Shown: positions 2,859-57,859 of the stretch, piece by piece | Numbering within the stretch: position 1 is the stretch's first letter | Layout: every line of letters begins with the position of its first letter | Origin: a virus | Taxonomy: Duplodnaviria > Heunggongvirae > Uroviricota > Caudoviricetes | Virus record (IMG/VR): IMGVR_UViG_3300010401_000032 | Location: 26,145 to 90,144 of that record | DNA length: 64,000 bases | Direction: 5' to 3' (one strand) | Notes under the pieces: generated by a model | Seen by the model: only the letters and a program-made list of their open reading frames with translations | Database searches by the model: none | Told to the model about the DNA's origin: nothing | Translations under genes and position numbers: made by a program

Positions 2859-3476
2859 ATGGAAGCCCATTGGAAAGAACTACTCGCCATCCTGAATTAT
2901 CAGGATGGCGAATCTATTTTAGACGTTGGTGGGGCCATGGATCCCGTACCTATAGCAGACCAAGTGATTGATATCATGAATCTTAATAGGGGTGGGAAAG
3001 CCTATACGCTTCTAGATTTATGCTGTGACGAATTTCCATTCGACGATAAATCGTTTGACATCTGTATTTGTTCTCAAACGCTAGAAGATCTTGCCTCACC
3101 ACGATTAGCCCTGAGAGAGATGGCTAGAGTTTGTAAACGCGGAATAATTGAAGTACCGCATCGTGGTCCAGAATCAATTAAAAACACATATTCTTTACAT
3201 GGCAAAAAACCAGATTGGGCTATGGATGAAACGTGGTGTTTCGGAACAGAACATCATAAGTGGCTAATTGAAGTCATAGACAATAAATTAATATTTACAG
3301 TAAAAAACTACTTACATCTAATGTACAACCCAATTCCACAATGGAAAGGACCCGGAGGAATTCGTTTTGTATGGTACGACACAATTCCGCATAATGTTAT
3401 GTATGACATCCATCCAGAATCTATGTTTGCGAACTATCAAGATTTTCGGGAACGCTCACGGTGCTACTGGGAATGA
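2859..3476 (+). CDS. class I SAM-dependent methyltransferase
   Basis: Motif I ILDVGGA; motif FDICICSQTLEDL; 4 nt after rsr in the same frame. Confidence 0.55.
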   Translation: MEAHWKELLAILNYQDGESILDVGGAMDPVPIADQVIDIMNLNRGGKAYTLLDLCCDEFPFDDKSFDICICSQTLEDLASPRLALREMARVCKRGIIEVPHRGPESIKNTYSLHGKKPDWAMDETWCFGTEHHKWLIEVIDNKLIFTVKNYLHLMYNPIPQWKGPGGIRFVWYDTIPHNVMYDIHPESMFANYQDFRERSRCYWE

Positions 3477-3510
3477 AAAAGTTGTGTAACGAGCTTGACT
3501 ACACCCCTGG

Positions 3511-3921
3511 ATGGAGTATACTCCATCCATGGGTTTTAATAAAGTCATATTCTGTCTGAACGACGCTCAAGGCGAAATTGACCGCAATCCTTCCGGATGG
3601 TGGGCTGCCTGTACAGCGGCGTTTTGGGAACTTTGGAATAAGCATCGCGATGCGAACGGCGATAAACAACCGCAGCCGTTCAGTTGCGGTAGCTATTCTC
3701 AGTATTGGCAGGCTGTTTGGGAAGAGCACGCGGATATTACCGGCGTGATCATGGTTGGTCGCAATTCCACAACAGTCATTGGAAGCTCTCTATACGGCGG
3801 CCATCATACCGAAGAGGGTCAAATCAAGATTCTGAAAGAGATCCTCGAAAAGAAAGGATATCGCATTGTTAAGAAGCCTAATCGAAAAGGAACTAGCAAG
3901 AGCGGAAGCCGTTCTATTTGA
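3511..3921 (+). CDS. hypothetical protein
   Basis: 136-aa ORF. Confidence 0.35.
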   Translation: MEYTPSMGFNKVIFCLNDAQGEIDRNPSGWWAACTAAFWELWNKHRDANGDKQPQPFSCGSYSQYWQAVWEEHADITGVIMVGRNSTTVIGSSLYGGHHTEEGQIKILKEILEKKGYRIVKKPNRKGTSKSGSRSI

Positions 3922-4077
3922 CGCTGAGAATGGAAAGAAAGCCCTACATGGTCCAACTGTGGATAACCACAAAGGGCAGCGGATCGCCTACCGCAAGGTA
4001 CTTTCCTATTTAGAGCTTGAAAAAATAACTCCTCCAATCAGATTTGAAATTTCCCGCACTCTTCACATGAACCTTAC

Positions 4078-4341
4078 GTGGCCCTGGCTTGCTTTTGCAG
4101 CCATTTGTATTATAATCTGGTACATAAAATGACCGAACATAACTCAGACATTAATATTGGAAGCAGCTTTCTCCCATCGCTTCTTCTGGTACTTTTCATT
4201 GGCCTCAAGCTGACTCATCATATTGATTGGTCGTGGTGGTGGGTCCTCTCGCCCGCTTGGATTCCACTTGTCATTTGCGTTTGTGCAATCATCGTCGTAT
4301 TCATGATCGTTGGATTTGATAGTACTTTGCGGAGCAAATGA
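4078..4341 (+). CDS. small membrane protein
   Basis: 87 aa, two TM-like segments; stop overlaps next ATG. Confidence 0.3.
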   Translation: MALACFCSHLYYNLVHKMTEHNSDINIGSSFLPSLLLVLFIGLKLTHHIDWSWWWVLSPAWIPLVICVCAIIVVFMIVGFDSTLRSK

Positions 4342-4739
4342 ATATTCTGATTCTGGAAGACAATCCAAATAGGATCGAAATATTCCTATTGGCACTTTCT
4401 AAGGACAATGTAATCACCATTGCAGAAACAGCCCAAGAGGCTATCGATCTAATAGCCCTAATGTCATTCGATGTTATTTTCCTGGATCATGATCTTGGAC
4501 TTCAACAATACGTCAGTGAAGATCTCGAAAATACGGGCAGTGGCGTGGTTCGATGGATGCTAGAGAAAAAAGAGTATTTGCTTGATCCGCATGGGCCACT
4601 GATTATCGTCCATTCACAAAACGAACCAGCCGCAAAGTCCATGGAATCAAAACTACAATCTGCCGATTTTAACGTTCGCAGGGTATCGTTCTATAGTCTA
4701 TGTAAGAATAATTTCAATGAAGTGCCTAATACTAGGTGA
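4338..4739 (+). CDS. stand-alone receiver (REC/CheY-like) domain protein
   Basis: ILILEDN (acidic pair), FDVIFLDHDLG (phospho-Asp position), downstream Ser and Lys in REC order. Confidence 0.45.
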   Translation: MNILILEDNPNRIEIFLLALSKDNVITIAETAQEAIDLIALMSFDVIFLDHDLGLQQYVSEDLENTGSGVVRWMLEKKEYLLDPHGPLIIVHSQNEPAAKSMESKLQSADFNVRRVSFYSLCKNNFNEVPNTR

Positions 4740-5445
4740 CGTACACTGCGAGTGGGATCATTTGAACGCGACCATTGCGAAGGCTCTGCGTCGTCACCCG
4801 GATATTACGCATATTGTCCAAGTGGGCGATTTTGGCTACGGCTGGCCGCAGACCAAGCCTTTCAAGATCAGCCATGGCTATTACGAGACGGACGAACTGT
4901 TTGAACGAGCTTTAAAAATGCCGTTCTTCTGGCTCGATGGAAATCACGAGAACCACGATCTATTGGAAGCCGATCATGGTGCTTCTCAATCGAACACGTT
5001 CTATTGCCCACGTGGCAGCGTAATCGAATTCAAGCTTCCTACCCGCGAGGTCCGCCGAGCGATGTTCTTTGGCGGTGCGTCATCCATTGATAAGAAGTAT
5101 AGAATCGAAGGTGTCACGTGGTGGCCGCAGGAGAGTATCACTTACTCCCAGACCCAAAGGGCAATCGAAAGCCATAATGAAGTGGATATTGTGTTCTCGC
5201 ACGAGCGTCCATCCGCATTCAATTACAAGCACAATTTCAAAGAAGGCTTCGGAGAATCAGACAAAAACGCTCTAGAGGCAATCAGAGAAGTCTTTAAGCC
5301 ACCGTTTTGGTGCTTTGGTCATTATCATGATTACGACAGAGGCGAACATGATGGAACTCAGTGGGTATGTTGTCCAATTATAGACGATCGCAGTTATACA
5401 ATATGGGATGGAGATTCGTTAGAATATTACCCAAATAATGGATAA
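4717..5445 (+). CDS. calcineurin-like metallophosphoesterase
   Basis: Motifs LILGDVHC, VGDFGYG, GNHENHD, FGHYH (GDxHG/GDxxD/GNHE/GH). Confidence 0.7.
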   Translation: MKCLILGDVHCEWDHLNATIAKALRRHPDITHIVQVGDFGYGWPQTKPFKISHGYYETDELFERALKMPFFWLDGNHENHDLLEADHGASQSNTFYCPRGSVIEFKLPTREVRRAMFFGGASSIDKKYRIEGVTWWPQESITYSQTQRAIESHNEVDIVFSHERPSAFNYKHNFKEGFGESDKNALEAIREVFKPPFWCFGHYHDYDRGEHDGTQWVCCPIIDDRSYTIWDGDSLEYYPNNG

Positions 5446-5866
5446 GTCTCCAAAACGAATATTACTATTTCTTAAGAAGTTTTACAAGACTTCTAAATGT
5501 TGGATATGGACAGGAGCAGTCAATAGTTGTGGTTATGGAAACTTTTGGGACGGCGAACACTACTGCAATGCTCATAATTATTCGTACAGATTATTTGTTG
5601 GTCCTATTGAAAAAGGACTGCATGTAGATCATTTATGTAGAAATAGAATATGTGTTAATCCAGATCACCTAGAGGCCGTTACACAAAGAGAAAATCTGTT
5701 ACGTGGAAATACACTAGTCTCAAAAGAGAGTAAACAGACTCATTGTATTAACGACCATGAATTCAACTTTAAAAATACATACATCGATAAAAGAAATAGA
5801 AGACATTGTAGAAAATGTAGATGTATAAGATTAAAAAAGCATAGAAATAGAAATAAAAATGATTGA
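5438..5866 (+). CDS. HNH endonuclease
   Basis: [29 protein letters not shown] motif. Confidence 0.7.
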
Positions 5867-6374
5867 GTTTACTCAAGAAACGATTGATAAGCAAGATGCC
5901 CGCCGCTGTCCACTAGTTACGGTGGACATTATCATTGAAATTCTCGACTGGTTCCCATTGGCCATATTTGGGAATACACTGGAACCAATGAAGAGTCAAA
6001 ATGGCATCGTTCTCATTGAACGCAAGAATGAACCGCATGGGTATGCACTTCCTGGAGGTTTCGTAGATATCGGCGAAACTACCGCCGCAGCCGCCGCCCG
6101 CGAAGCTTTAGAAGAAACTCAATTGCATGTTACGCAATTGGAGCAATTTCACACTTATTCCGATCCGGCCCGCGATGCACGTGGGCACGCAATTAGCATT
6201 GTCTATATTGGTAAAGCAATCGGGGAACCACTAGCAGCAGACGATGCTAAAAACGCATTTATTATTAACCCGGCACAAATGGGCGACTGGAACACAAAAG
6301 AACTATGTTTTGATCATCGTCAAATTCTAACCGACTATTTAATTTTCAAACAAACTGGAAAGCGACCACTATGA
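5859..6374 (+). CDS. Nudix hydrolase
   Basis: Nudix box [24 protein letters not shown]. Confidence 0.7.
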
Positions 6375-6679
6375 TTATTACTGGCCATATAAATATAGAA
6401 ACGGCTAGAAAGGATACTGACCTTAATGGCAATCCTCTTGAGGATGGCATGGTATCAGAATGGGCCATGGCAATTACATTAGCTCGATATAAAATTGGAG
6501 AAGAAGTAGAGCAAGAGGAGCTTGAAAGACAATTAGAACTTGCTCGCACACAACAAATACTTGATAAAATGATTGAAGATGGTTTAATAGATCAAGTTTG
6601 GAGTGAGGAAAAACAAGAGTTTGCTTACAAGCTTACTGAAAAAGGCGTAAAGGCGGCAGAGGATATCATTCATGAGTGA
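6371..6679 (+). CDS. hypothetical acidic protein
   Basis: 102-aa ORF, overlapping start/stop with neighbours. Confidence 0.4.
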
Positions 6680-8093
6680 GTTTAATTTAATTGCCCACGG
6701 CACAGATTCATATAAGGGATCTCACTGGAATCTATATCCGCCCGGAACCGAAATTGTATATTCATATTGCGAACCCCGTAAGGGAGCACGCTTTGGTCCT
6801 ACTACATTCTTCGGCTTGCAATACATTTTAAAGAAATATTTGACGGGTCAAGTTGTGACTCGTGAGAAGATCGAAGAAGCCGCTAAACTATATGCGGCCC
6901 ACTTTGGTAATGATAAAATATTCAATCGTGAAGGCTGGGAATACATTCTCAGTGCTTATGGCGGATTACTTCCCGTTCGCATTAATGCTATTCCAGAAGG
7001 TACGTCGGTCAAAACCGGTACTTGTCTTTTCACAATAGAAAATACAGATCGTAAGGTTCCTTGGCTTACTAATTATCTTGAAACGCTTTTAATGCAAGTC
7101 TGGTCGCCAATTACCGTTTGCACAAGTAGTCGTCAGATTAAAGACATTATTTCTGGATATCTAGATCTTACTGGCGATTCTGCCGGCCTATCTTTTAAGC
7201 TTCACGATTTTGGTTATCGTGGTGTTTCTTCTGTAGAAACCGCCGCTCTTGCTGGAGCCGCACATCTTGTGAACTTCAAAGGCACGGACACCATGGCTGC
7301 ACTCGCATTAGTGAGAGATTATTATCACGAACCCATGGCGGGCTATTCTATTCCAGCCACAGAGCACAGCGTCATGACCGCCGAAGGTCCCGAAGGTGAA
7401 GTTAATATTGTTCGCCGTATATTGGCGACTTATCCAACAGGATTGGTCGCCATGGTAATCGACTCTTTCGATACATTTAATTTTATCGAGAATGTAATTG
7501 GCGGTAACCCCGACATCCTATCGGCGATTCGCAATCGCCAAGGCACGGTAGTATTCCGGCCCGACAGTGGTAAGCTTCCCGGTATCGATCTAGATGTCTT
7601 CCACTCACTTGCGAAGGTATTTGGAGTTGAAAGGAATTCAAAGGGATTCGACGTTCTTCCTTCGCAAGTGAGAATGATTCAAGGCGACGGCATCAAATGG
7701 CTTGAGCCTCGCTTTAACGAAGATTCGCATCACAGTGTGAGCGATATTCTGGAACTATTTCACACGAATAAAATCTCTGCCGACAACATTGCATTCGGCT
7801 CAGGTGGCGGATTGCTCCAAAGCTTCAATAGAGACACACAGCGATTTGCTATTAAATGCTCATGGATGCAAGTAAATGGCCAGCCTCGCGACGTATACAA
7901 GCAACCTTCTACAGATAAGGACAAGACTTCAAAAAGAGGAAGACTGGTTGTAATTCAAGACGACGATGGTAGCATCTACACGTTGCCGGAAGGAAGCGGC
8001 GGCAAGAATATACTTGAAGAAGTTTTTATGAACGGCTATCTTGTACGCGACCAGACTTTCGAAGATATCCGCGAAAGGGCTACGCTATGTTAG
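6672..8093 (+). CDS. nadV: nicotinamide phosphoribosyltransferase (NAMPT/NadV)
   Basis: 473 aa; NAMPT-family length and motifs (FKLHDFGYRGVSS, GTDT). Confidence 0.8.
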   Translation: MSEFNLIAHGTDSYKGSHWNLYPPGTEIVYSYCEPRKGARFGPTTFFGLQYILKKYLTGQVVTREKIEEAAKLYAAHFGNDKIFNREGWEYILSAYGGLLPVRINAIPEGTSVKTGTCLFTIENTDRKVPWLTNYLETLLMQVWSPITVCTSSRQIKDIISGYLDLTGDSAGLSFKLHDFGYRGVSSVETAALAGAAHLVNFKGTDTMAALALVRDYYHEPMAGYSIPATEHSVMTAEGPEGEVNIVRRILATYPTGLVAMVIDSFDTFNFIENVIGGNPDILSAIRNRQGTVVFRPDSGKLPGIDLDVFHSLAKVFGVERNSKGFDVLPSQVRMIQGDGIKWLEPRFNEDSHHSVSDILELFHTNKISADNIAFGSGGGLLQSFNRDTQRFAIKCSWMQVNGQPRDVYKQPSTDKDKTSKRGRLVVIQDDDGSIYTLPEGSGGKNILEEVFMNGYLVRDQTFEDIRERATLC

Positions 8094-8359
8094 AACGGTT
8101 AGCAGAACTAGAACATATTCAGTGGGCTCATTGGACAAAGTACATGCTCGACAATATTACGGCAGATAATATAGCGAGATGGCGGCGTCAGATTGATACG
8201 CCTTATTGTGATCTTTCTGAAAAAGAAAAAGAAAGCGATCGTGAATGGGCACGAAAAGTAATGGAAATTACGAGCGGAAGCAAGCCGGCGACTGAAATAC
8301 ATCATTATTACGATGGTCGTCCGTATAGTTACGACAGCTTTGGAGATCCACTAGGATAA
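8087..8359 (+). CDS. hypothetical protein
   Basis: 90-aa ORF. Confidence 0.4.
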   Translation: MLERLAELEHIQWAHWTKYMLDNITADNIARWRRQIDTPYCDLSEKEKESDREWARKVMEITSGSKPATEIHHYYDGRPYSYDSFGDPLG

Positions 8360-8361
8360 TT

Positions 8362-8748
8362 ATGCTTTCAAATAAAGATATCGAATCTATTTTGAGTCAA
8401 ATTAGTATTGGCGATCTAAAACTCAATCTTCGTTACGACGGAAAGCGTCCTTATCTACAGGTCGCATGCAATAATGGCACGGACACGAAGACGGGTAATC
8501 CGGCGTCATGGACGGGCCGTAAGCGGATGCTTTCTCGCTTTATGTGTAGAACTGAGATCGTACGTACAGCTTATAAAGCTTATATGGCAGCGATCAAGCA
8601 TGAGGCTCAGGAGCTATTCAAATATAAGAATGCAGCCATTTATAGCCCTCATTTTAACGTCGAGGTATTGGCTGATATTTATAGTCATGGCGAACAATTA
8701 TATCCAAATATAGAGGATACTCGCGAGAACGGAATGTTAGCCGAATGA
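8362..8748 (+). CDS. hypothetical protein
   Basis: 128-aa ORF. Confidence 0.4.
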   Translation: MLSNKDIESILSQISIGDLKLNLRYDGKRPYLQVACNNGTDTKTGNPASWTGRKRMLSRFMCRTEIVRTAYKAYMAAIKHEAQELFKYKNAAIYSPHFNVEVLADIYSHGEQLYPNIEDTRENGMLAE

Positions 8749-9926
8749 TTATTCAAGAACTTCACGATAGCCCCTATCGTGGAGTATTCCATGAGGTTGG
8801 CGTCGGTATGGAAGTCACGGCTTCTCTATTACGTGTTCCGGGAGCTTCGAAAACAGTTATCGGAGCACATTGTGACTACGCTGGACTTCATAAGCCCAAA
8901 GATATTAGGGCGGTATCATTAGATTACGCCCGAAGGCTCGCATATGAGTGCTTAGAAGCAGCTACGCTAACATTAAAGGATAGCGAGCCCTCGGATCAAG
9001 TATTCGGTATGGCAGTTACGGCAGTAGATTATCCTGATCGTACGTCGCACGCCTGGATTTATATTTCTCGCCTGGGAAAAGATACTAGATACGATCAAGA
9101 CGCTTATATGCACATCAATTTTCTGCCTAATTGCTTCGATCGTGAGCAATTAGGCAGAGAGCTTGCAAATCAAGCACTAAAGTTTCTACATAATGTTCTT
9201 TTAAGAAAAATACCTTGGAGCAAATTCTGTCGTGAGTTCAATGTAACGTGTGGTCCAGGAATTACAGGTATGCTTTATGCAGACGTTATCTATGCTCCTG
9301 GCATAAGCGATATCGAAAGATTATTTACATTAACAGATAATGCTTCACTAGTATTCCACCAAGGAAAATTTCATCGCGTTGTAGATTATCTACGTAAATA
9401 TCATCGAATCTATGGCGGTTCATTTGATCCGCCGCACGACGATCATATGAAGGCCGGCAAAGATTCACTATTCCTGCTTTCAACGAACCACTGTTATAAG
9501 GGTGGCCTTTCTATGGAAGATATCTATCATAGAATGCGAATGCTGGATATTTTTGGCGTTCCCGTCCTTATTATGAAGGATCGCCCTATGTTCTGGCAAA
9601 AGCACAAGCTATTGAATGATTTATGGCCCCAGACGTATAAATATATATTAGGATCAGACGCTTGGAATACAATGATTGCGGCTCACCAATATCCGACCGA
9701 AGATTTCATGCGTAATCATTTCCAAGATGCAATCTTTGAGATTATTCTGCGAAAAAACGAAACCATTAGTAGTAATCAAATTAGTAACGGATTAATACTA
9801 AAGGAATCAGAATTAAAAACAGGTTCAATGTCCAGTACTTCTATTCGAGGCGGCAATTACAAAGGATTGGACTCACGAATAGTGAATTACATTAAGACAA
9901 ACAAACTTTACTCAGAAGGTACTTGA
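8745..9926 (+). CDS. NMN adenylyltransferase-domain protein (cytidylyltransferase-like C-terminal half, unknown N-terminal half)
   Basis: GGSFDPPHDDH = nucleotidyltransferase (H/T)xGH motif of NMNAT/NadM; N-terminal ~250 aa unassigned. Confidence 0.55.
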   Translation: MIIQELHDSPYRGVFHEVGVGMEVTASLLRVPGASKTVIGAHCDYAGLHKPKDIRAVSLDYARRLAYECLEAATLTLKDSEPSDQVFGMAVTAVDYPDRTSHAWIYISRLGKDTRYDQDAYMHINFLPNCFDREQLGRELANQALKFLHNVLLRKIPWSKFCREFNVTCGPGITGMLYADVIYAPGISDIERLFTLTDNASLVFHQGKFHRVVDYLRKYHRIYGGSFDPPHDDHMKAGKDSLFLLSTNHCYKGGLSMEDIYHRMRMLDIFGVPVLIMKDRPMFWQKHKLLNDLWPQTYKYILGSDAWNTMIAAHQYPTEDFMRNHFQDAIFEIILRKNETISSNQISNGLILKESELKTGSMSSTSIRGGNYKGLDSRIVNYIKTNKLYSEGT

Positions 9927-20821: not shown

Positions 20822-20962
20822 ATGAGTGGAGACAGAAGCGATTGGTTTTGCAGCAAATGTGGAAAATATCAAGACCCACAATATTTAGATTATAATACAG
20901 GCGAGTGTTGGGATTGTCAAGAAAACGATCTTCCGGAATCATCAGATGCAAGTTCTATTTAG
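20822..20962 (+). CDS. small zinc-ribbon protein (46 aa)
   Basis: MSGDRSDWFCSKCGKYQDPQYLDYNTGECWDCQEN..; CxxC-x17-CxxC; overlaps start of next ORF. Confidence 0.3.
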   Translation: MSGDRSDWFCSKCGKYQDPQYLDYNTGECWDCQENDLPESSDASSI

Positions 20963-21731
20963 AACATCGTTTGATTTTGATGATGAATTAGCTATCGCAA
21001 AACAATATTGCGATGTAAAAGAATATCGTAGTCAGTGCGGTAATGATCTCGTAGTTGGTCGTTATTCAGTTTTACCATACTATAGAGAGCTTGAAAAAGA
21101 TCTGGCGTCGCACAACGCCAAACTAATCAATAGTTATGCGGAGCATAGATGGATCGCCAACTTTGATTACTACGAAACTTTGCATCAATATACGTTTCTA
21201 ACCTGGACAGATGATAACTTCTATAAATGTCCTATAAATGGACCGTTCGTAGTTAAAGGACGAACAAACTCTAGAAAGCATCAATGGAAAACTCATATGT
21301 TTGCCAAGGATAAGGAGGCGGCAATAAATATTGCAAATGAGTTAAACAACGATCCGCTATTAGGCGAGCAGGGAATTTTATATCGCGAATATATTCCATT
21401 AGAGGTCTTTGAAGTAGGAGTTAACGATATTCAATTTACGAACGAATGGCGTTTCTTCTTTTTCAAGCAGAACATACTTACTTATGGATATTATTGGTCA
21501 CAAGCGGATAAAGCAGACGAATATAAGATTCCAGAAGGCGGTATAGAGTTTGCACAAACAATAGCCAATGCGATTGGAGATAACGTTCAATTTTTCGTTG
21601 TCGATATTGCTAAGACGCTGGCTGGCGAATGGATTTTAGTAGAACTTAATGACGGTCAAATGTCCGGGCTTGGAATGGCAAGTCCGCATGACCTATATAG
21701 AAATCTTGCAAAAATAAACACTCCAGGGTAG
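20946..21731 (+). CDS. ATP-grasp-fold enzyme (substrate unknown)
   Basis: C-terminal FFVVDIAKTLAGEWILVELNDGQMSGL typical of ATP-grasp Mg/ATP-binding end; YREYIPLE motif. Confidence 0.5.
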   Translation: MQVLFRTSFDFDDELAIAKQYCDVKEYRSQCGNDLVVGRYSVLPYYRELEKDLASHNAKLINSYAEHRWIANFDYYETLHQYTFLTWTDDNFYKCPINGPFVVKGRTNSRKHQWKTHMFAKDKEAAINIANELNNDPLLGEQGILYREYIPLEVFEVGVNDIQFTNEWRFFFFKQNILTYGYYWSQADKADEYKIPEGGIEFAQTIANAIGDNVQFFVVDIAKTLAGEWILVELNDGQMSGLGMASPHDLYRNLAKINTPG

Positions 21732-28414: not shown

Positions 28415-28639
28415 ATGAAGATGACAGAAATTCCCATCGGTAAGCCTTTCAGGATTATCGATAATCAATGGTATAACCAATTTGTATTTGAGCGTCTAGA
28501 CCACGCTCAAATCCGAAATTTGGATACAGGTGACGTTGGAGAAATCAATCATTTTCTTGAAATAGAAGAGGTCGCGGAGTACATTCCTGGCGACCCCGAA
28601 CGAATCAAGCGATATCTGGCAAAGAAGGTGACACAATGA
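28415..28639 (+). CDS. hypothetical protein
   Basis: 74-aa ORF. Confidence 0.35.
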   Translation: MKMTEIPIGKPFRIIDNQWYNQFVFERLDHAQIRNLDTGDVGEINHFLEIEEVAEYIPGDPERIKRYLAKKVTQ

Positions 28640-29109
28640 CCCACACGAACCGCGATCTATTACAAGCAATCAACCTAGCGTTGCTGGCACACGGTTCGCA
28701 ATTGGACAAGGCGGGAATGCCCTATATTCTACACCCCCTGTATGTCATGGGGCAGGTAGATTCGACCGATGCAAAAATTGTAGCAGTATTGCATGACGTT
28801 ATTGAAGACACCGCAGTAACATTTGTTTACAATCGAATCTGCGAACTTGTAGGTATCAGTCTTTGGGGAACCACTTATTTCTTCGAAGATAAGATTCTGC
28901 ACGCCTTAGAAGCGATCACACATCGTAAGGGCGAGACGAACATACAGTATTGGACCCGCGTTAAGGCTAACCCGCTCGCCCTTACGGTGAAGCTGGCAGA
29001 CATCGCACACAACTCTTCGGAAGGGCGGCTAGCTGCCCTTCCGAAGGGTGAACAAGAGCGTTTACGTGCCAAGTATCACATGGCAAGAGAATATCTACTG
29101 GAAACTTAA
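28636..29109 (+). CDS. HD-domain small alarmone hydrolase (RelA/SpoT hydrolase-like)
   Basis: HGSQLDKAGMPYILHPLYV ... LHDVIEDT matches SpoT/Mesh1 hydrolase HD motifs. Confidence 0.6.
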   Translation: MTHTNRDLLQAINLALLAHGSQLDKAGMPYILHPLYVMGQVDSTDAKIVAVLHDVIEDTAVTFVYNRICELVGISLWGTTYFFEDKILHALEAITHRKGETNIQYWTRVKANPLALTVKLADIAHNSSEGRLAALPKGEQERLRAKYHMAREYLLET

Positions 29110-29111
29110 AT

Positions 29112-29750
29112 ATGCGACGTAACAAAGATCTATGTGTTAAGATTGCCCGCGACGTTCTTTTACAGCTTAAAAAAGGACGCTACGATCCCGTTCCCGGTAT
29201 TTATATTGAAGTAAATCTTGGTAGTCTTTTTGAAGACCATAATGGCGATATCATTGAAACCGTGAATGATCCGTTTGATGAAAGTGACGATCCTGAAATA
29301 AAGATTGTTGCAAAACCAGGCGGTTCTTTTAAGAAATTATTTAAAGAAGAAAAAGAGATTACTTGTACCGTCTGTGCCCTGGGAGCAGCTTTCATATCGT
29401 TAATCAACGTAAGAAATCGGTGTTCCAATGGCGAAGTAATAAATAATTCTCCTGAGAATATGTTCGATCGACTGGAAAAGGTCTTCGGTCAGCGTAATAT
29501 AGGTTTAATGGAAACGGCATTTGAAACAGAACCAATGCGGTTCGCTATGGGATTATCTCAAGTAGACATTGAGGCCGCTATTGAATATGGCGACCAATAT
29601 AAGAACGACACAGAACGCCTTCGTATGATTATGCGTAACGTTATTCGTAACAAGGGAGACTTTATTCTTCCACAGAAAATTGTTAAGCGTGTCGAGATGG
29701 AGTTGAGTGGAAAAAGGCAACGTATTATCCCGTATGACATGTACTATTAA
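29112..29750 (+). CDS. hypothetical protein
   Basis: 212-aa ORF. Confidence 0.45.
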   Translation: MRRNKDLCVKIARDVLLQLKKGRYDPVPGIYIEVNLGSLFEDHNGDIIETVNDPFDESDDPEIKIVAKPGGSFKKLFKEEKEITCTVCALGAAFISLINVRNRCSNGEVINNSPENMFDRLEKVFGQRNIGLMETAFETEPMRFAMGLSQVDIEAAIEYGDQYKNDTERLRMIMRNVIRNKGDFILPQKIVKRVEMELSGKRQRIIPYDMYY

Positions 29751-29752
29751 TT

Positions 29753-29836
29753 GGCCCCGTGGTGGAATGCAGACACAATAGACTCAAAATCTATCGCCCT
29801 TAAAGCGTGCCGGTGCAAGTCCGGCCGGGGCTACCA
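29753..29836 (+). tRNA. tRNA-Leu(CAA), type II
   Basis: Acceptor GGCCCCG/CGGGGCT. D-stem GTG/CAC. Anticodon stem ATAGA/TCTAT, loop CTCAAAA. 14-nt variable arm. T-arm GCCGG-TGCAAGT-CCGGC. CCA encoded. Confidence 0.65.
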
Positions 29837-29853
29837 AACCCTAGCGAAGAGCT

Positions 29854-30015
29854 ATGAAAGCACAGAAATTTAAACTAATCATCGAAAGCGATAAAAAGAT
29901 CACGACGAGTGATGTCCTTGATTTACTTCAAAAGCACCTCCAGGTCACAATCACCTCGTTAGCGGTAGTCGACTGGGACACGAAAGAAGCAGAAGGGATC
30001 TATTCACTAGAATGA
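29854..30015 (+). CDS. small hypothetical protein (53 aa)
   Basis: ATG 29854; stop TGA overlaps ATG of RNA ligase (ATGA). Confidence 0.3.
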   Translation: MKAQKFKLIIESDKKITTSDVLDLLQKHLQVTITSLAVVDWDTKEAEGIYSLE

Positions 30016-31082
30016 GCGATCTATTAGTTAGAGTAGTAAAAGTAGACGAAGTGAATCGGCATCCGAATGCTGATAAGCTTGAAATAGTTAAAGTTGGAGG
30101 CTGGCAGATTGTGTCTGGCCTTGGCAATTACAAGGTCGGCGATCTAGTGGTTCACGTGCCGCCCGAGTGTCTCGTGCCCAAAGAGTGGGCCGATAAGTGG
30201 TCCGTGACTCCCTATCTATCGTGGAAGTCCAACGCGGCCAAGGGCAGAGTGAAGGCGGTAAAACTTCGCCAAGCGGCGAGCTATGGATTTCTAGCTCCCA
30301 ACGAATCTGGAGCGGAAATTGACACAAACGTTGCCGACTTCTATGGAATTGAGAAATACGAAGAGCCCGAACCGCTCGATTTTGGCCAAGCGGCCCGTCA
30401 ACATCCATACTTCCATAAATACACTGATATTGCGAGCCTCCGGAACTTTCCAAAAAGCTTAAAATATGATGAACCAGTTTGGGTAACTGAAAAGCTGCAT
30501 GGAACAAACTCAAGGGTCGGATGGATAAAATCTCAAGATGAAAATGGGACCCCATACCTTGAAAAAGTCATCGGCACTCATCGCACTCAGCGTAAACTTG
30601 AGAATGCCGGTGTCTATGGGCTGCCGTTTGAATTATACGGCGACGGGCTTGAAAAAGCGAAGAGCTTAATAGAAGACGTAATGAAAACGCCGATAGATTC
30701 AATTATTTTCTTTGGCGAAATCTTTGGTCCCGGCGTTCAAGATCTACAATACGGTCTAAAAGACAAGGACTGGAGACTATTCGATATTGCTGTAAATGGC
30801 GAATATTTTCCTTATGACTACATAAGAGAGGTTTCTAGTCAGTGCAATATACCGATCGTGCCTAATTACGCTCCCTATATGTACAGCTTTGAGCAATTGT
30901 GCGAACTAGCAGAAGGTAAATCCGCATTAGCGGAAGGACAAATAAAAGAAGGTATTGTGGTCCGTCCAATGCGAGAACTTACATGGGGAAAGGGTGAACT
31001 TGATCCCAATCCAAAACGAATGATTTTCAAGCTTATAAACTCAGATTACCTATGCCGAAAAGGCGGAACAGAAAAACACTAA
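30012..31082 (+). CDS. RNA ligase (Rnl2/Rnl5-like nucleotidyltransferase) with N-terminal tRNA-binding OB (EMAP/Myf-like) domain
   Basis: N-terminal VVKVDEVNRHPNADKLEIVKVGGWQIVSG resembles the MetRS/PheRS-beta tRNA-binding domain; ligase motif I KLHGTN. Confidence 0.65.
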   Translation: MSDLLVRVVKVDEVNRHPNADKLEIVKVGGWQIVSGLGNYKVGDLVVHVPPECLVPKEWADKWSVTPYLSWKSNAAKGRVKAVKLRQAASYGFLAPNESGAEIDTNVADFYGIEKYEEPEPLDFGQAARQHPYFHKYTDIASLRNFPKSLKYDEPVWVTEKLHGTNSRVGWIKSQDENGTPYLEKVIGTHRTQRKLENAGVYGLPFELYGDGLEKAKSLIEDVMKTPIDSIIFFGEIFGPGVQDLQYGLKDKDWRLFDIAVNGEYFPYDYIREVSSQCNIPIVPNYAPYMYSFEQLCELAEGKSALAEGQIKEGIVVRPMRELTWGKGELDPNPKRMIFKLINSDYLCRKGGTEKH

Positions 31083-31177
31083 TATGCATGACGAAAAGCG
31101 ACCTGTCCCGAGAGGCAGGAGAATTGTAAAGGCTGGAATAGTCGGCCTCGTAATTATCCTAATTATTATCATCGGAA

Positions 31178-31402
31178 TTGATAACGACCTGTTCGAGGGA
31201 TTCGATGATTGAACTACTAAAAGATCCGCGTTATCTTTGGTTTTTATTTAACTGCCAATTACTTGGATTAAACTTTGGACTTCTTATATCGTCATTCTTT
31301 AAACACGAGTACGTCTTTATTGCTATTCTCGCCCTGGGAACAATAGCTGGAATATATAATGTCATTGTTTCGAGAGCAAAATGGCTTAATTCATATGAAT
31401 AA
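31178..31402 (+). CDS. small membrane protein
   Basis: 74 aa, two TM segments. Confidence 0.3.
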   Translation: MITTCSRDSMIELLKDPRYLWFLFNCQLLGLNFGLLISSFFKHEYVFIAILALGTIAGIYNVIVSRAKWLNSYE

Positions 31403-31583
31403 CATATTCATCAAACTTTTCGTGGTGCTAATTATAGTGCCAACATTAGCATTCGTGGGCATCGACGCCGGATTTTGGCTACTTAATCAGCCGTCCGACC
31501 TAGCGGACTTCGGCGGTTTAATCGTTCTCTTTATCACCGCAATCTCCTGTTTTTCAATTTTAAGGAAAGTATTTAAGCAATGA
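31359..31583 (+). CDS. small membrane protein
   Basis: 74 aa, two TM segments. Confidence 0.3.
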   Translation: MSLFREQNGLIHMNNIFIKLFVVLIIVPTLAFVGIDAGFWLLNQPSDLADFGGLIVLFITAISCFSILRKVFKQ

Positions 31584-32428
31584 AAGCATTTTTCACATTT
31601 CTAACCGTTATCAGCCTTTGTGCATGTACTAAGGTTGAACCGGGATATGTCGGCATTAAAGTTAACCAATACGGAAGCCAGAAGGGCGTAGAGGATTTCC
31701 CTATGCAAACTGGTATGGTATGGTATAACTTCTTTACAACAGAAGTATATAAGTGGCCTACCTTCCGCCAAAATATCATTTGGACAAAGGGTCACGACGA
31801 AGGCTCACCGAACGACGATAGTATTACTTTCAATTCTATTGAAGGCTCTGTTGTCAACGCAGACATTGGCCTTTCGTATTCTCTTCGTGCAGCAGAAGTG
31901 CCCCTCGTTTTCGTAACTTTTAGACAAGATATCGAACATATCACTCATGTCTATATTCGCTCCGAAGTACGAGACGCTATTTCACGTCATGCCAGCACTA
32001 TGAAGGTTATCGACATTTTCGGCTCGAAAAAGCAAGAGCTACTTGAAGCCGTCAAGCGAGACCTCAATGAGCATCTTGGTAAGGTTGGCTTTGAATTTGA
32101 AATGGTGTCATTTATTGGTGGATTGCGTTGCGACGAAAACGTTATGACATCGATTAATGCAACAATCCAGGCTACTCAGCTTGCTATTTCTGCTCAAAAT
32201 AAGATTGTACAATCTAAGGCCGAAGCCGACCAAGCAATTGAACGTGCTCGCGGCGAAGCTCAATCTATCATCGCGGTCGCCAAAGCACAGGCCGAGGCCA
32301 ATGATCTAGTTAATAAGTCCCTCACGCCTAATCTAGTACTATGGCGTGGAATAGATAAGTGGAATGGCACTGCACCGCAAGTACTTGGTGGAAATCTGCC
32401 GATACTGACCATGCCGGTTAAACAGTGA
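31580..32428 (+). CDS. SPFH/band-7 (HflK/prohibitin-like) domain lipoprotein
   Basis: N-terminal signal with LCAC lipobox-like Cys. Central SPFH-like region and C-terminal coiled coil (QSKAEADQAIERARGEAQSIIAVAKAQAEAN). Confidence 0.55.
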   Translation: MKAFFTFLTVISLCACTKVEPGYVGIKVNQYGSQKGVEDFPMQTGMVWYNFFTTEVYKWPTFRQNIIWTKGHDEGSPNDDSITFNSIEGSVVNADIGLSYSLRAAEVPLVFVTFRQDIEHITHVYIRSEVRDAISRHASTMKVIDIFGSKKQELLEAVKRDLNEHLGKVGFEFEMVSFIGGLRCDENVMTSINATIQATQLAISAQNKIVQSKAEADQAIERARGEAQSIIAVAKAQAEANDLVNKSLTPNLVLWRGIDKWNGTAPQVLGGNLPILTMPVKQ

Positions 32429-32513
32429 AAGTACTGGACAACTACAACCTTTAAATCACTATTTTCAAAATTTCTGTTTACAGTCCTCTAAATAGCGTCA
32501 TAATAGAACTATC

Positions 32514-32888
32514 ATGGCAACACAACTAACACTAGAAAACTTTACAAAAGAAACCGGCCTGAGATTTCGTGTCTCGTTAGCTCAACAACAAGCTATTAAA
32601 AGCGGTACGTTAACACGCGAGCAGGCTTTTAATGACTTCCTAGCAAATGGCGGTCTCGAAAAATTGAAGAACAAGAGTCGTCCAGAAGTACCGGATGAGG
32701 TCTACCATATGGATGGCCTTACGCTGGAAAACTTCGGCGAGTTCGTAGAGAAGAAGATCGGCGTCAGTCGTCGCTTCCGCGTATCCCGCGAACAAGCAAA
32801 GCGTATTGACGAAGGTACATTAACACGTGAGCAAGCATTACAGGAAACTATTGCCGCAAAACGGCAGGAAATGGCTAACAAAGTATGA
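32514..32888 (+). CDS. hypothetical protein with internal duplication
   Basis: Two repeats ...TLENF..FRVS..Q...GTLTREQA. Confidence 0.4.
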   Translation: MATQLTLENFTKETGLRFRVSLAQQQAIKSGTLTREQAFNDFLANGGLEKLKNKSRPEVPDEVYHMDGLTLENFGEFVEKKIGVSRRFRVSREQAKRIDEGTLTREQALQETIAAKRQEMANKV

Positions 32889-33280
32889 GTAATTTGAATT
32901 CGGTAGTACTACAGGGGCGTCTCACTGACAACCCCACTATTCACGGAGCGGAGCAAAACGTTGCACGATTTACATTGGCCGTAAATGACGGCTTTGGTGA
33001 AAAAGAAGAAGTTTCTTTCATCGATTGTGTTGCGTTCGGCAAGCAGGTTCCCGTAATCGGTAAGCACCTTGTAAAAGGTAAGCAAATCGTTGTTCGTGGC
33101 AAGATTGTTCAAAATCGCTGGGAAACGCCAGAAGGTGGGAAGCGTTCCAAGCTAGAAGTCAGACTAGAGAATTTCGAAGGCTTCTACTTCATCGGTCAGA
33201 ATAAGACTGGCGAAGCGGCTTCGACGACACCGGAAGAGCCGGTCGCAGCAGAAGTTACAAAGGGCGAAAAGCTCTTCTAA
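32885..33280 (+). CDS. ssb: single-stranded DNA-binding protein
   Basis: OB-fold SSB pattern VVLQGRLTDNP...RFTLAVN...FIDCVAFGKQ...VVRGKI..RWETPEG. Confidence 0.65.
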   Translation: MSNLNSVVLQGRLTDNPTIHGAEQNVARFTLAVNDGFGEKEEVSFIDCVAFGKQVPVIGKHLVKGKQIVVRGKIVQNRWETPEGGKRSKLEVRLENFEGFYFIGQNKTGEAASTTPEEPVAAEVTKGEKLF

Positions 33281-33334
33281 TTAGCCTTTTTCATCATATC
33301 AAGGGCCAGCGGTAAAGTTTTTTACTGTTGGCCC

Positions 33335-33362
33335 TTGACATTATGTAAAGGTGTGCTATACT
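33335..33362 (+). promoter_or_regulatory. sigma70-type promoter TTGACA-16-TATACT, leaderless to ATG 33369
   Basis: TTGACA 33335-33340, TATACT 33357-33362, ATG 6 nt downstream; preceded by 10-bp inverted repeat 33301-33336. Confidence 0.55.
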
Positions 33363-33368
33363 ATAGAG

Positions 33369-33836
33369 ATGAAGCTAGTTATTCTACGTGGACCTAGTGG
33401 GTCGGGCAAGAGCACAATAAGTGGACATATTTGGTGGAATATTATTCCTAAGGAATGGAGCGTCGTACACGAAGCTGATCAATTCTTTACTAAGACACTA
33501 GGGAGTGGAGATACATACAAATTTAACCAAACAATGCTCTCGAAGGCTCATGACTGGTGTAGATTAAACGTAGAACGAAGCATGTATGTAGGTGAAAACG
33601 CAATTGTTGCTAACACAAACATGAGCCTTCGAGAGATCGAGCCCTATATCGAGCTAGCAGACCAATATAATTACGAAACAGAGATTTGGCGTACTCCAGG
33701 CCCGTGGGATCCCGAAATACTTTTCCAACGGAACGTTCATAATGTTCCGTTGGAAGTGCTCAAGCGACAAATCGCCCGCTATCAACCTCATGCAGAAGAA
33801 AAGGAATGGTCGGACTTGACCATATTCAATGCTTAA
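33369..33836 (+). CDS. polynucleotide 5'-kinase (T4 Pnk kinase-domain-like), kinase domain only
   Basis: MKLVILRGPSGSGKST P-loop; VANTNMSLRE and NVPLEVLKRQIARY match T4 Pnk ISDTNLNPE / VPIDVLRSMYKSM. Confidence 0.6.
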   Translation: MKLVILRGPSGSGKSTISGHIWWNIIPKEWSVVHEADQFFTKTLGSGDTYKFNQTMLSKAHDWCRLNVERSMYVGENAIVANTNMSLREIEPYIELADQYNYETEIWRTPGPWDPEILFQRNVHNVPLEVLKRQIARYQPHAEEKEWSDLTIFNA

Positions 33837-34116
33837 TGCTCAAAATAGTAAGTGCTGGACATGTCTCCATGGTATTTGCTTACAAGAAAGTGAACAAGAA
33901 GAAATCAGTGGTATCCCGATAGAAGATGACGGCGAGCAACAAAAATATCCGTTCGCTATCGATGATCAAGACGAGGAAAACGAAGAGGAAGAGGGCAGTG
34001 CTATAATCGAAAGGGCACGAGTCAAGGCTATTTGTTTCTGGCGTCCGGAAGGTCTACAGTCACCGCCTATTCTTGTTGGGCAAGTAAAGGAATGCAGTAG
34101 ATACGAAGCAAAATGA
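33829..34116 (+). CDS. hypothetical acidic protein
   Basis: 95-aa ORF. Confidence 0.35.
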   Translation: MLNAQNSKCWTCLHGICLQESEQEEISGIPIEDDGEQQKYPFAIDDQDEENEEEEGSAIIERARVKAICFWRPEGLQSPPILVGQVKECSRYEAK

Positions 34117-34556
34117 TTACATCATTTCATACTCCTGAAACAGAATTCTTAAGTAATTTCTATCTTTGTTGCGTGCCGTATGAGGGTTTCATATATCCGT
34201 CAGCAGAAAACGCTTATCAAGCTGCCAAGACTTTAAATATAAAAGCCAGAAGTGCATTTACTCTTGAAGAAATGACTCCGGCTATGGCGAAGCACTTGGG
34301 TAAAATCATAAAGATTAGATCCGATTGGGACCAAGAGAAACTCCAGGTCATGTGGGATATCTTAAGTTCTAAGTTTGAAGATCATGATTTGAAGCGACTA
34401 TTACTAGCAACTGGTGATCAAGAATTAGTAGAAGGAAACAATTGGGGAGATGTATACTGGGGAGTATGTAAAGGTAAGGGTGAAAATAATCTCGGAAGGC
34501 TTTTAATGAATCTCCGTAAGAAACTCAACGATGAACAGTTCACTAACAATCTGTAG
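34113..34556 (+). CDS. NADAR (YbiA-like, DUF1768) domain protein
   Basis: FLSNFY..EN.YQA.K...W....ELVEGNNWGD.YWGV...GENNLGRLLM pattern of NADAR family. Confidence 0.65.
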   Translation: MITSFHTPETEFLSNFYLCCVPYEGFIYPSAENAYQAAKTLNIKARSAFTLEEMTPAMAKHLGKIIKIRSDWDQEKLQVMWDILSSKFEDHDLKRLLLATGDQELVEGNNWGDVYWGVCKGKGENNLGRLLMNLRKKLNDEQFTNNL

Positions 34557-35775
34557 CCAGATAAGAGATGCGGGAGGCACTCCGTACATAGTCGGGGGCT
34601 ATGTCCGAGATACGATCATGGGCAAGTGTCCGAAGGACACTGATATTGTCGTAGTTGGTTTTAGCTTTCCTCAACTAACTAATCTATTTGCAGCCAGTAA
34701 GATTATTGGTAAAGATTTTCCGGTAATACAGGTAGACGGAATTGAAATTGCACTAGCTAGAAAAGAAAGAAAAATTGATACTGGCCATACCGGATTCATA
34801 TGTGACACGCTAGGGGTTTCGCTGGAAGAGGACCTATTCCGCCGCGATTTAACTATAAATGCGATGGCAATGGACCCGTTCACGGAACAAATCACGGATC
34901 CATTTGGAGGAAGGGCGGATATCAATAACAAGATGATCCGGCCGGTCAGCATCCATTTCAAGGAAGATCCACTTAGGGTTTTACGAGCAGCACGATTTGC
35001 AGCACAATTCGATATGGATCTCTGCTTGCAGGTAAGCATAATGGCACAAGAGATGATGGCCGAGCTAACTACACTGACACCTGAGCGTGTTTGGGGAGAA
35101 ACTCTAAAGGCTCTCAAAACCGACAATCCTCAACGCTTTTTCGAAGCTTTGAATGAGATGGAGGTTTTGGAGATTGTATTCCCCGAAATCGCCGCACTCA
35201 AGGGACGCATTCAGCCGGAGAAGTATCATCCGGAGGGTTGCGTATTTACGCATTTCTTACAGGTGTTAGAACGTGCTAGAAATTTAGGTGCCGACGAAGA
35301 AACAATGTTCGCCGCCATGTGTCACGATCTAGGTAAGGCTGTTACTCCAGATGAGGATCTTCCTAGACATATAAATCATGAAGCGTTGGGAGTGCCGATC
35401 GTTGAAAGTCTTTGCGAAAGATTGAAAATTCCCAATTCTTTTAGACATGTGGCCGTGCTAACAGCTAGAGAGCATTTAAACATACATCGTTTTCAAGAAT
35501 TGAAGCCCGTAACTCAGGTACGTCTTATTACTAGACTTAATGGTATTCATGATGACATTACTCTAAAAAGGATTTGTATGGCATCTATGGCAGATGCTAG
35601 AGGACGTGGACCAGTCTATTGGAATAAAGAATATCCACAAGCAGATGCAGTATTAAAAGCGGCAGAAATTATCCGGTCCGTTCGTGGCGACCAATTTGCA
35701 CATTTAAAGGATGGCAATATTATCGCTCAAAAATTAGAGCAGGCGAGAACAAAGGCACTTGGATCCACTAGATAG
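34531..35775 (+). CDS. cca: tRNA nucleotidyltransferase (CCA-adding enzyme) with C-terminal HD domain
   Basis: Head-domain motif YIVGGYVRD-x8-DTDIVV (GGxVRD..DxD); length 414 aa. Confidence 0.7.
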   Translation: MNSSLTICSQIRDAGGTPYIVGGYVRDTIMGKCPKDTDIVVVGFSFPQLTNLFAASKIIGKDFPVIQVDGIEIALARKERKIDTGHTGFICDTLGVSLEEDLFRRDLTINAMAMDPFTEQITDPFGGRADINNKMIRPVSIHFKEDPLRVLRAARFAAQFDMDLCLQVSIMAQEMMAELTTLTPERVWGETLKALKTDNPQRFFEALNEMEVLEIVFPEIAALKGRIQPEKYHPEGCVFTHFLQVLERARNLGADEETMFAAMCHDLGKAVTPDEDLPRHINHEALGVPIVESLCERLKIPNSFRHVAVLTAREHLNIHRFQELKPVTQVRLITRLNGIHDDITLKRICMASMADARGRGPVYWNKEYPQADAVLKAAEIIRSVRGDQFAHLKDGNIIAQKLEQARTKALGSTR

Positions 35776-36241
35776 ATTTTGGATAAAAGTTAATAAGAAC
35801 TCTGGTACATTCGGAGCAAATGGACTATTTGAAACCGAATGTTGGGAATGGACTGCAAGTTTAACTGCCAAAGGTTATGGAAGATTTTGGCCAATTGGTA
35901 GACGCGGTTATCATGCACATAGATATTCTTGGATTATACATTTTGGAAAAATAGACGACGAAGTAAACGTTTGTCATAAATGTGATAATAGAAAATGTAT
36001 ACGACCAGATCATTTGTTTATAGGAACGCAAATAGAAAACATTAAAGATATGGACCTTAAGGGCAGGCGTCAACCAGCTAGAGGCCCGTCTCACGGGAAT
36101 GTTAAATTAACTCCAGGTGAAGTTCTTACAATTCGTTCGCTATGGCCAAGTACAAGATATTGTGATATAGCTCGTGATTTCAATATTAGTCATGGAACAG
36201 TAATGGATATTGTTAAACGACGCAGTTGGAAACACATATGA
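35759..36241 (+). CDS. HNH endonuclease
   Basis: HAHRYSW..NVCHKCDNRKCIRPDHLFIGTQIEN. Confidence 0.7.
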   Translation: MDPLDRFWIKVNKNSGTFGANGLFETECWEWTASLTAKGYGRFWPIGRRGYHAHRYSWIIHFGKIDDEVNVCHKCDNRKCIRPDHLFIGTQIENIKDMDLKGRRQPARGPSHGNVKLTPGEVLTIRSLWPSTRYCDIARDFNISHGTVMDIVKRRSWKHI

Positions 36242-38847: not shown

Positions 38848-39339
38848 ATGACAAATAAGGCAATCTATTTAGCTGGCGGAATAAGTGGACTTACTTATGA
38901 CGAAGCAACACAGTGGCGAATTGCGACGAAAGCAGCCCTCGAACCATTAGGTATCAAGTGTCTAAGTCCATTGCGAGCGGCCGTGCATTTACGCAATAAC
39001 CAGGGACTTCTAACAGACTGTGAAATAGTTGACGGCATGCAGCCTGAAAACTATGCGGCTCTCACAATGAGCACACCGAGAGGCGTAGTAACACGCGATA
39101 AGTTTGACTGTACTCATTGCGACATGCTTATAGTTAATCTATTGAATGCAAAAAGAGTTTCTATTGGCACGATGGTTGAAATAGGTTGGGCTAGCATGCG
39201 TAATATTCCTATTGTGCTTGTAATTGAAAAAGAAGGCAATATTCATGAGCACGCTTTCGTAAAAGAATCGGCGACCTTTAGAACAGACTCAATCAGCGAA
39301 GCAATCGAAATAGCAAAAGCTATCCTTGGAGATTATTGA
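38848..39339 (+). CDS. nucleoside 2-deoxyribosyltransferase-fold protein (Ndt/DNPH1/LOG-like)
   Basis: N-terminal IYLAGGISG Rossmann-like motif; ~160 aa. Confidence 0.45.
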   Translation: MTNKAIYLAGGISGLTYDEATQWRIATKAALEPLGIKCLSPLRAAVHLRNNQGLLTDCEIVDGMQPENYAALTMSTPRGVVTRDKFDCTHCDMLIVNLLNAKRVSIGTMVEIGWASMRNIPIVLVIEKEGNIHEHAFVKESATFRTDSISEAIEIAKAILGDY

Positions 39340-48083: not shown

Positions 48084-48104
48084 TGTATTTTTAACAGGAA
48101 AATC

Positions 48105-48731: not shown

Positions 48732-48760
48732 CTCCCCCTCATTTTTTGGAGGGTATATAA

Positions 48761-57826: not shown

Positions 57827-57859
57827 AGTATGTATATACTGACATATACCGGCAAATTG

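Follow-up and report, generated by a model that had tools for sequence, protein, structure and literature searches.

We analysed a 64-kb stretch of a viral contig of at least 161 kb (IMG/VR record IMGVR_UViG_3300010401_000032; hereafter the window), in which open reading frames (ORFs) of at least 140 amino acids (aa) were scanned. The genes at positions 5859-9926 of its plus strand probably form an NAD+ reconstitution module of the NARP2 type with a non-orthologous last enzyme. This enzyme would be a 393-aa fusion protein (8745-9926) in which a PncC-like domain, best seen as a mononucleotide binder and not as a deamidase, precedes a NadD-type domain. The initial annotation had described the region as an NAD+ salvage cluster, and the three genes on which that description was based are present at the positions and on the strand given there: a Nudix hydrolase (5859-6374, 171 aa), NAMPT/NadV (6672-8093, 473 aa) and the fusion protein, which is of the NMNAT class. 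While this set holds up, the cluster in fact comprises six tightly packed ORFs, whose stop and start codons mostly overlap, and the three small ORFs interleaved with the named genes had gone unmentioned. These are, again on the plus strand, a 102-aa ORF (6371-6679) with weak winged-helix similarity below the cutoff (Pfam HTH_45, 4e-4), a 90-aa ORF (8087-8359) with a weak sub-threshold match to the RyR domain, and a 128-aa ORF (8362-8748) that belongs to a phage family (phrog_1540, 2e-25), the last two being variable inserts.

The family assignments of the Nudix and NAMPT proteins are far beyond chance. When the hidden Markov model (HMM) check suggested in the initial annotation was run, the NAMPT assignment was borne out by both Pfam domains, NAMPT_N (6e-36) and NAPRTase (4e-37), by NCBIfam PRK09198 (1e-161, with 539 bits against a curated cutoff of 405) and by phrog_448 (3e-143). 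The protein falls within the NadV/KVP40 clade, whose enzymes use phosphoribosyl pyrophosphate (PRPP), as it is predicted to do itself, and its nearest counterparts in cultured phages (Phaeobacter MD18 and Myxococcus Mx1) adjoin a NadM-Nudix or NMNAT gene. The Nudix hydrolase, which had rightly been described as a stand-alone protein upstream of NAMPT, matches Pfam NUDIX (PF00293, 5e-15) and has an intact Nudix box at residues 67-89 that is conserved in the syntenic orthologs. It is of the ADP-ribose pyrophosphatase type known from NadM-Nudix and NrtR proteins: its best NCBIfam matches were NrtR (9e-13) and the bifunctional NMNAT/Nudix enzyme (8e-10), and it aligns with residues 211-342, the Nudix half, of the NadM-Nudix protein of Phaeobacter phage MD18 (28% identity, E 9e-12). 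Whereas the KVP40 NatV type holds a NadM-class NMNAT and a Nudix domain in one polypeptide, the window Nudix is separate and homologous to the Nudix half only. NrtR, an ADP-ribose-responsive repressor, combines a Nudix domain with a C-terminal winged helix-turn-helix (wHTH) and its Nudix box is usually degenerate; the window protein, in contrast, has no fused wHTH and a catalytically intact box. A split NrtR, made up of the Nudix protein and the adjacent wHTH-like 102-aa ORF, was also considered and rejected, given the catalytic Nudix box, the sub-threshold wHTH similarity and the presence of the small ORF elsewhere in related phages.

Residue conservation, counted over 149 family representatives clustered at 50% identity, was the basis for asking whether each half of the 393-aa protein is CATALYTICALLY plausible. 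By fold and motifs, the C-terminal adenylyltransferase (residues 215-393; 9387-9926, plus strand) is predicted to be of the NadD/NMNAT class, with NMN (nicotinamide mononucleotide) or NaMN (nicotinic acid mononucleotide) as the substrate of such enzymes. The sequence GGSFDPPHDDH was found where the initial annotation had placed it, at residues 224-234 (nt 9414-9446). It does lie in the C-terminal part of the protein, but the domain makes up the C-terminal ~45% and not the C-terminal third, as the motif stands at 57% of the protein. Within it, GxFxPxHxxH occupies residues 225-234 (9417-9446), and SSTxxR follows at residues 363-368 (9831-9848); further NadD-type motif residues are K252 (the PPHK-type lysine), R263 and G303-x-D305. 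Hardly any variation is seen at ten of these positions (G225, F227, P229, H234, K252, R263, G303, D305, S364 and R368), where 146-149 of the 149 agree, and for G225, F227, P229, H234, S364 and R368 the count is 148-149. At position 231, 148 representatives have His or Thr, while less strict positions are S363 (134/149) and 365 (107 Thr, 38 Ser).

The HMM check of the NMNAT assignment gave a mixed outcome, in that single-sequence scores stayed under the curated cutoffs while the family profile matched NadD structures over their full length. Single-sequence scans of the 393-aa protein returned no Pfam and no PHROG family, and only sub-threshold matches to NCBIfam NadD models (best PRK07152, 8e-8). 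A word-indexed homology search, on the other hand, retrieved six full-length relatives with 37-46% identity, together with a set of 362-aa bacterial proteins that carry both the N- and C-terminal signatures. A profile of the fusion relatives then matched the solved NadD structures 2h29 and 1kam across the entire structure length (E 2e-6). For the C-domain, NadD/NMNAT structures ranked above every other nucleotidyltransferase, with NadD being structurally nearer than the NMN-specific NadM and NadR; by BLASTP, the fusion was unrelated to NadM enzymes and to the NMNATs of MD18 and Mx1. The fusion thus has the fold, the (H/T)xxH motif, the PPHK-type Lys, GxD and ISSTxxR in common with bacterial NadD and eukaryotic NMNAT1-3, but differs from them in its low identity (~20%), in falling below the curated HMM cutoffs, and in its extra N-terminal domain and linker.

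The view that the N-terminal half is novel could not be upheld, since profiles match CinA structures and Pfam CinA is detectable in relatives: residues 1-160 (8745-9224, plus strand) constitute a CinA-C/PncC-fold domain. The fusion-family profile weakly matches the PncC domain of Thermus thermophilus CinA (TtCinA), and a profile of the N-domain only aligns residue by residue with 4ct8 (E 9e-4) and 2a9s (E 3e-3). Pfam CinA (PF02464) is weakly detectable in six bacterial relatives (best 8e-5), and gives no match to the window protein even at E<=10. Between the two domains lies a linker or beta-hairpin region, residues 161-214 (9225-9386, plus strand); no other segment is as conserved within the phage clade.

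In the deamidase AtCinA, S31 is the nucleophile, with K63 as general base; phosphate is bound by Y58 and R145, S48 and T105 are accessory (the residues for phosphate and ribose binding being S48, Y58, T105-G106 and R145), and the S31A, K63A, Y58A and R145A variants are all inactive (PMC5384747); the TtCinA equivalents, with K301 for K63, are given in PMC4246079. Structure alignment equates S35, Y45 and position 50 of the window protein with S48, Y58 and K63, while T92 and R133 were equated with T105 and R145 by conservation pattern and position. Contacts to the phosphate and ribose of the ligand are kept in the window (S35, Y45, T92, R133) and conserved in the family (S35 147/149, Y45 148/149, R133 148/149, Thr or Ser at position 92 145/149). 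The dyad is not. At position 18, that of the nucleophile, the window has Val and the family Thr, Val, Ala or Ser in 86, 28, 17 and 5 of the 149 representatives, and at position 50, that of the general base, the window has Lys by exception, as this residue occurs in four representatives against 84 with Leu, 35 with Gln and 11 with Met (the last three together ~90%). No sequence among the representatives combines Ser or Thr at position 18 with Lys at position 50. Published criteria (PMC3855486) place CinA domains so substituted among the non-functional deamidases. Even among syntenic phage orthologs, position 50 can be K, L or R, and V, T and A all occur at position 18; since lysine 50 varies among orthologs with the same gene order, the function of the module cannot depend on it.

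The N-domain therefore resembles the C-terminal deamidase of PncC/CinA proteins (AtCinA 2A9S, TtCinA 4CT8, Escherichia coli YgaD) in its CinA-C fold and binding residues, but has Val for the Ser nucleophile (Thr, Val or Ala in the family) and a general-base Lys that is not conserved. It differs from CinA itself in lacking a Pfam CinA match and in its fusion partner, which is a nucleotidyltransferase and not COG1058/MocF. Catalytic substitutions are also found in the E. coli CinA paralogs YdeJ and YfaY, for which deamidase activity was shown or predicted to be absent (PMC3855486). YdeJ-type decay, however, removed the phosphate-binding blocks and the Tyr, whereas the fusion family has kept both and lost the dyad alone, which suggests that ligand binding is retained. 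Mean pairwise identity is 41% for the N-domain and 40% for the C-domain within the phage clade, and 31% and 34%, respectively, family-wide. The most economical reading of this residue pattern is that the N-domain is a constrained, ligand-binding, non-catalytic PncC-like domain; it is most likely not a deamidase.

Gene order ties the fusion to NAMPT. Relatives lie on IMG/VR contigs of 105-183 kb, a protein identical to the 393-aa one is recorded on a contig of 161 kb, and seven of the seven other phage loci with a full-length fusion (L001-L004 and L009-L011) have the order (cREC and/or calcineurin-like phosphoesterase)-Nudix-NAMPT-fusion-rIIA-rIIB. Across these loci NAMPT is 59-65% identical, the fusion only 37-41%. 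In L001-L003 the Nudix, NAMPT and fusion genes directly abut; the 128-aa ORF is absent between NAMPT and fusion there, and the 102-aa ORF has 37-38% identical homologs elsewhere, after an HD_4 gene (L001 13283-13555). This ORF appears to be a mobile small gene and not a part of the conserved module, and all three small ORFs of the window are lineage-specific inserts. Downstream, the rIIA-like (10726-12642, phrog_612 4e-125) and rIIB-like (12644-13672, phrog_609 7e-68) genes, both on the plus strand, are a conserved synteny anchor in the seven loci as well as a phage marker, and judged by such gene content the window is phage DNA. Only in the window does an HNH endonuclease gene (5438-5866, phrog_826 2e-44) lie between phosphoesterase and Nudix. 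The corresponding gap in L004 and L010/L011 measures ~30-80 bases and holds no HNH gene, an HNH homolog lies elsewhere in L010 and L011, and the window gene looks like a homing-endonuclease insertion.

Two loci depart from the usual form of the fusion. In another large uncultured phage (L012, 4605-6588) the adenylyltransferase half occurs alone, as a 199-aa protein that is 29% identical to residues 193-389 and includes part of the linker; it lies two genes downstream of a Nudix gene among glycosyltransferase-like genes, with no NAMPT within the 12.6-kb locus. The fusion ortholog of L009 (5986-7566 of this locus; IMG/VR contig 3300023223_000669) reads through to 526 aa, its C-terminus being ~135 residues longer than that of other members.

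In the pathway that we propose, NAMPT would convert nicotinamide and PRPP into NMN, and the NadD-like C-domain of the 393-aa protein would convert NMN and ATP into NAD+. The Nudix hydrolase, as the counterpart of the Nudix half of the KVP40/NadM-type bifunctional enzyme, would cleave ADP-ribose, the other product of immune NADases, into AMP and ribose-5-phosphate, which host Prs could return to PRPP. The PncC-like domain probably binds the mononucleotide, either to capture NMN and hand it to the adenylyltransferase domain or to regulate that domain, and perhaps mediates dimerisation as in PncC. The module as a whole would act against host defence. The NAMPT plus NMNAT route to NAD+ that had initially been envisaged fits the gene set, folds, motifs and synteny, with the amendment that the NMNAT is an unusual NadD-type fusion.

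NARP2 was defined by NadV and NatV of Vibrio phage KVP40 (Osterman et al., bioRxiv 10.1101/2024.02.11.579819). Like it, the 64-kb window has a phage NAMPT, a putative NMN adenylyltransferase and an ADP-ribose-type Nudix without Adps; the NAMPTs are homologous, and the closest cultured relatives of the window NAMPT are of the NARP2 type. NARP2 was, however, defined with a NadM-type Nmnat, whereas the window adenylyltransferase appears, from its NMNAT/NadD fold and motifs, to be of a different class. NARP1 (Adps and Namat) and NARP3 (PnuC and NadR; PMC13464706) share the overall purpose of phage NAD+ restoration, but among the larger ORFs of the window there was no Prs-like Adps, NadM, NadR (or NadR/RNK domain), PnuC or NadE. 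A NARP3 reading was rejected on the lack of PnuC and NadR among these ORFs, and a NARP1 reading, with the NAMPT homolog as Namat, on the lack of Adps there and the strict NMNAT linkage. The locus is best described as a NARP2-like module with a non-orthologous enzyme at the NMNAT step, a member of a large uncharacterised family of PncC-like/NadD-like fusions. More specifically, and as a tentative proposal, it is possible that the N-domain is a pseudo-deamidase that binds NMN and feeds or gates the NadD-like adenylyltransferase, which would make the fusion a previously uncharacterised NMNAT class that is widespread in uncultured bacteria and was recruited by one lineage of large phages in place of NadM-Nudix.

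Several points weigh against the NARP2-like reading. The 393-aa protein scores 28-31 bits where curated NadD cutoffs are 112-315, and its 13-15.6 bits against Pfam CTP_transf_like do not reach the curated threshold of 21. NadD enzymes generally favour NaMN over NMN, and their substrate specificity is set by backbone contacts and not inferable at ~20% identity; NMN use by the fusion is assumed from the NAMPT linkage alone. More generally, the enzymatic activities of fusion family members are ones that we infer from sequence. Another NMNAT, or a NadE, could lie elsewhere in the contig of at least 161 kb. In five neighbourhoods of cellular homologs no NAD-related genes were found, and the general function of the family is therefore unconstrained by context. 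Finally, Val18 was equated with S31 by extending the HMM alignment over three residues without gaps, and Lys50 and Thr92 are residues of an alternative water/Lys deamidase mechanism proposed for TtCinA (PMC4246079).

This last point bears on the main rival, a deamidating route of the Shewanella type, in which the N-domain would convert NMN to NaMN and the C-domain NaMN to NaAD (nicotinic acid adenine dinucleotide), with the fusion channelling the intermediate and host NadE completing NAD+. A PncC plus NadD pair would indeed cover two consecutive steps of the NadV-PncC-NadD-NadE route of S. oneidensis (PMC4246079, PMC3855486), the C-domain is closer in structure to NadD than to NadM/NadR, the phosphate-binding residues are intact, and in the window protein the general-base position is taken by Lys50, while Thr92 corresponds to Thr340. 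We nevertheless consider this route unlikely. The S31A substitution in AtPncC, at the position where the window has Val, abolishes activity; Lys50 is not conserved among the syntenic orthologs that have the same module (K/L/R/M); no family member has both dyad residues, a state that counts as non-functional by published criteria (PMC3855486); and the route needs an extra ATP as well as host NadE, no NadE having been found among the larger ORFs of the window.

The cluster could also be general auxiliary metabolism that supplies a large phage with NAD+ during infection, for instance for NAD-dependent reactions or for the RNA repair and nucleotide metabolism encoded nearby, the Nudix protein then being a housekeeping or regulatory NAD(H)/ADP-ribose pyrophosphatase. 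NARP2 of the KVP40 type raises NAD+ even without a defence system, the early-type region of the window is rich in RNA-repair and nucleotide-metabolism genes, and viral NadM Nudix domains have been proposed to regulate NAD+ levels (PMC9503650). Taken by itself this account seems improbable to us, as NARP2 experimentally overcomes NAD+-depleting systems and the conserved linkage to an ADP-ribose-type Nudix fits the recycling of NADase products; it is, moreover, compatible with counter-defence, and the two are not mutually exclusive. That the 393-aa protein is a non-NAD nucleotidyltransferase acting on another phosphorylated ligand, or a binder or sponge of ADP-ribose-derived immune signals, is very unlikely, because NadD/NMNAT structures outrank other nucleotidyltransferases, the NadD-specific residues (PPHK-type Lys252, Arg263, GxD, SSTxxR) are invariant, and NAMPT synteny is strict in every phage locus with a full-length fusion.

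We next consider how widespread the fusion is. When 1.84 billion cluster representatives were searched exhaustively with a profile, 665 proteins reached E<=1e-30 and 3108 reached E<=1e-10, and among the top 150 matches nearly all were 350-420 aa long and matched end to end. Their source names, on which the bacterial taxonomy of the family rests, include "CinA family protein", "hypothetical protein", "NMN deamidase PncC" and "NaMN adenylyltransferase/NMN deamidase"; cellular members come from metagenome-assembled genomes of Patescibacteria, Planctomycetota, Chloroflexota and Pseudomonadota, and from marine Gammaproteobacteria. In viruses the fusion is rare. Neither tblastn with the fusion nor megablast with the cluster gave a match in 50,697 GenBank phage genomes, four fusion loci were found in 2.9 million IMG/VR contigs, and in BFVD the two-domain fold recurs in one protein from an uncultured member of the Caudovirales and possibly in one from Terrestrivirus. 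A literature search found no description of a PncC-like/NadD-like fusion, and the phage NMNATs mentioned in a viral NAD+ survey (PMC9503650) and in the NARP papers (bioRxiv 10.1101/2024.02.11.579819; PMC13464706) are of the NadM and NadR types only.

Phage NAD+ reconstitution by NARP1-3 has recently been recognised as a general counter to NAD+-depleting immunity, and the locus described here suggests that its NMNAT step can be filled by a NadD-like enzyme with a fused PncC-like domain. HMM-based searches for NARP2 would miss the fusion because it has no Pfam or PHROG match, so that estimates of how common NAD+ reconstitution is among uncultured phages may be too low. The linkage to NAMPT also gives a large, unstudied cellular protein family a testable functional context; if the N-domain is an NMN-binding pseudo-deamidase, the synteny in phages would be the first functional clue for the family as a whole. 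With its ligand pocket kept and its catalytic dyad lost, the family is a clean example of such a change in an enzyme fold. The finding would gain in interest if NMN proved to be captured or gated by the pseudo-deamidase, or if the deamidating route operates.

Turning to possible control signals, a scan of the region for promoters and terminators gave no more sites overall than the shuffled background, and only the placement of the three best promoter-like sites is suggestive. One of them (3495-3522, plus strand, 10 of 12 consensus positions) lies in an intergenic gap and, as weak evidence, could start the tightly packed co-directional string of genes at 3511-9926. Another (9923-9950, plus strand, 11 of 12 positions with an extended -10 TG) directly follows the fusion gene and, on similarly weak evidence, may mark the likely 3' boundary of the gene unit.

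Directly upstream of the NAD cluster, four genes encode a Ro60/TROVE+vWA-like protein (1326-2855), a methyltransferase (2859-3476), a cREC cyclic-phosphate-processing receiver domain (4338-4739) and a calcineurin-like phosphoesterase (4717-5445). The last two form a pair that matches RNA-repair neighbourhoods described in PMC9503650, and L004, L009 and L010 also have this pair in synteny with the Nudix gene. A cluster of RNA- and nucleotide-related early genes extends from 28636 to 37308. The protein at its start (28636-29109), initially named an alarmone hydrolase, is an HD-type metal-dependent phosphohydrolase (phrog_990, 3e-41), although the match does not bear out the alarmone specificity. 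The NADAR gene at 34113-34556, in turn, was confirmed (Pfam, 7e-24). The same cluster includes two RNA ligases (30012-31082 and 36226-37308), an SPFH/Band7 protein (31580-32428), an AAA_33 kinase-like protein (33351-33836) and a CCA-adding/poly(A)-polymerase-HD enzyme (34531-35775).

Elsewhere in the window, an ATP-grasp protein of the R2K clade (20946-21731; Pfam 6.5e-24) and a nucleoside 2-deoxyribosyltransferase-like protein (38848-39339; 1.6e-9) were found. Genes for uracil-DNA glycosylase, methionine aminopeptidase (M24), peptide deformylase and PhoH follow one another at 46661-49441, and the N-terminal methionine-processing pair among them is, to our knowledge, uncommon in phages. A strand switch occurs near 51.2 kb, where GC skew changes sign, and the minus strand at 56814-61034 encodes ThyX, a ribonucleotide reductase (phrog_367, 8e-129) and a DAO-type FAD-dependent oxidoreductase (Pfam 4e-45).

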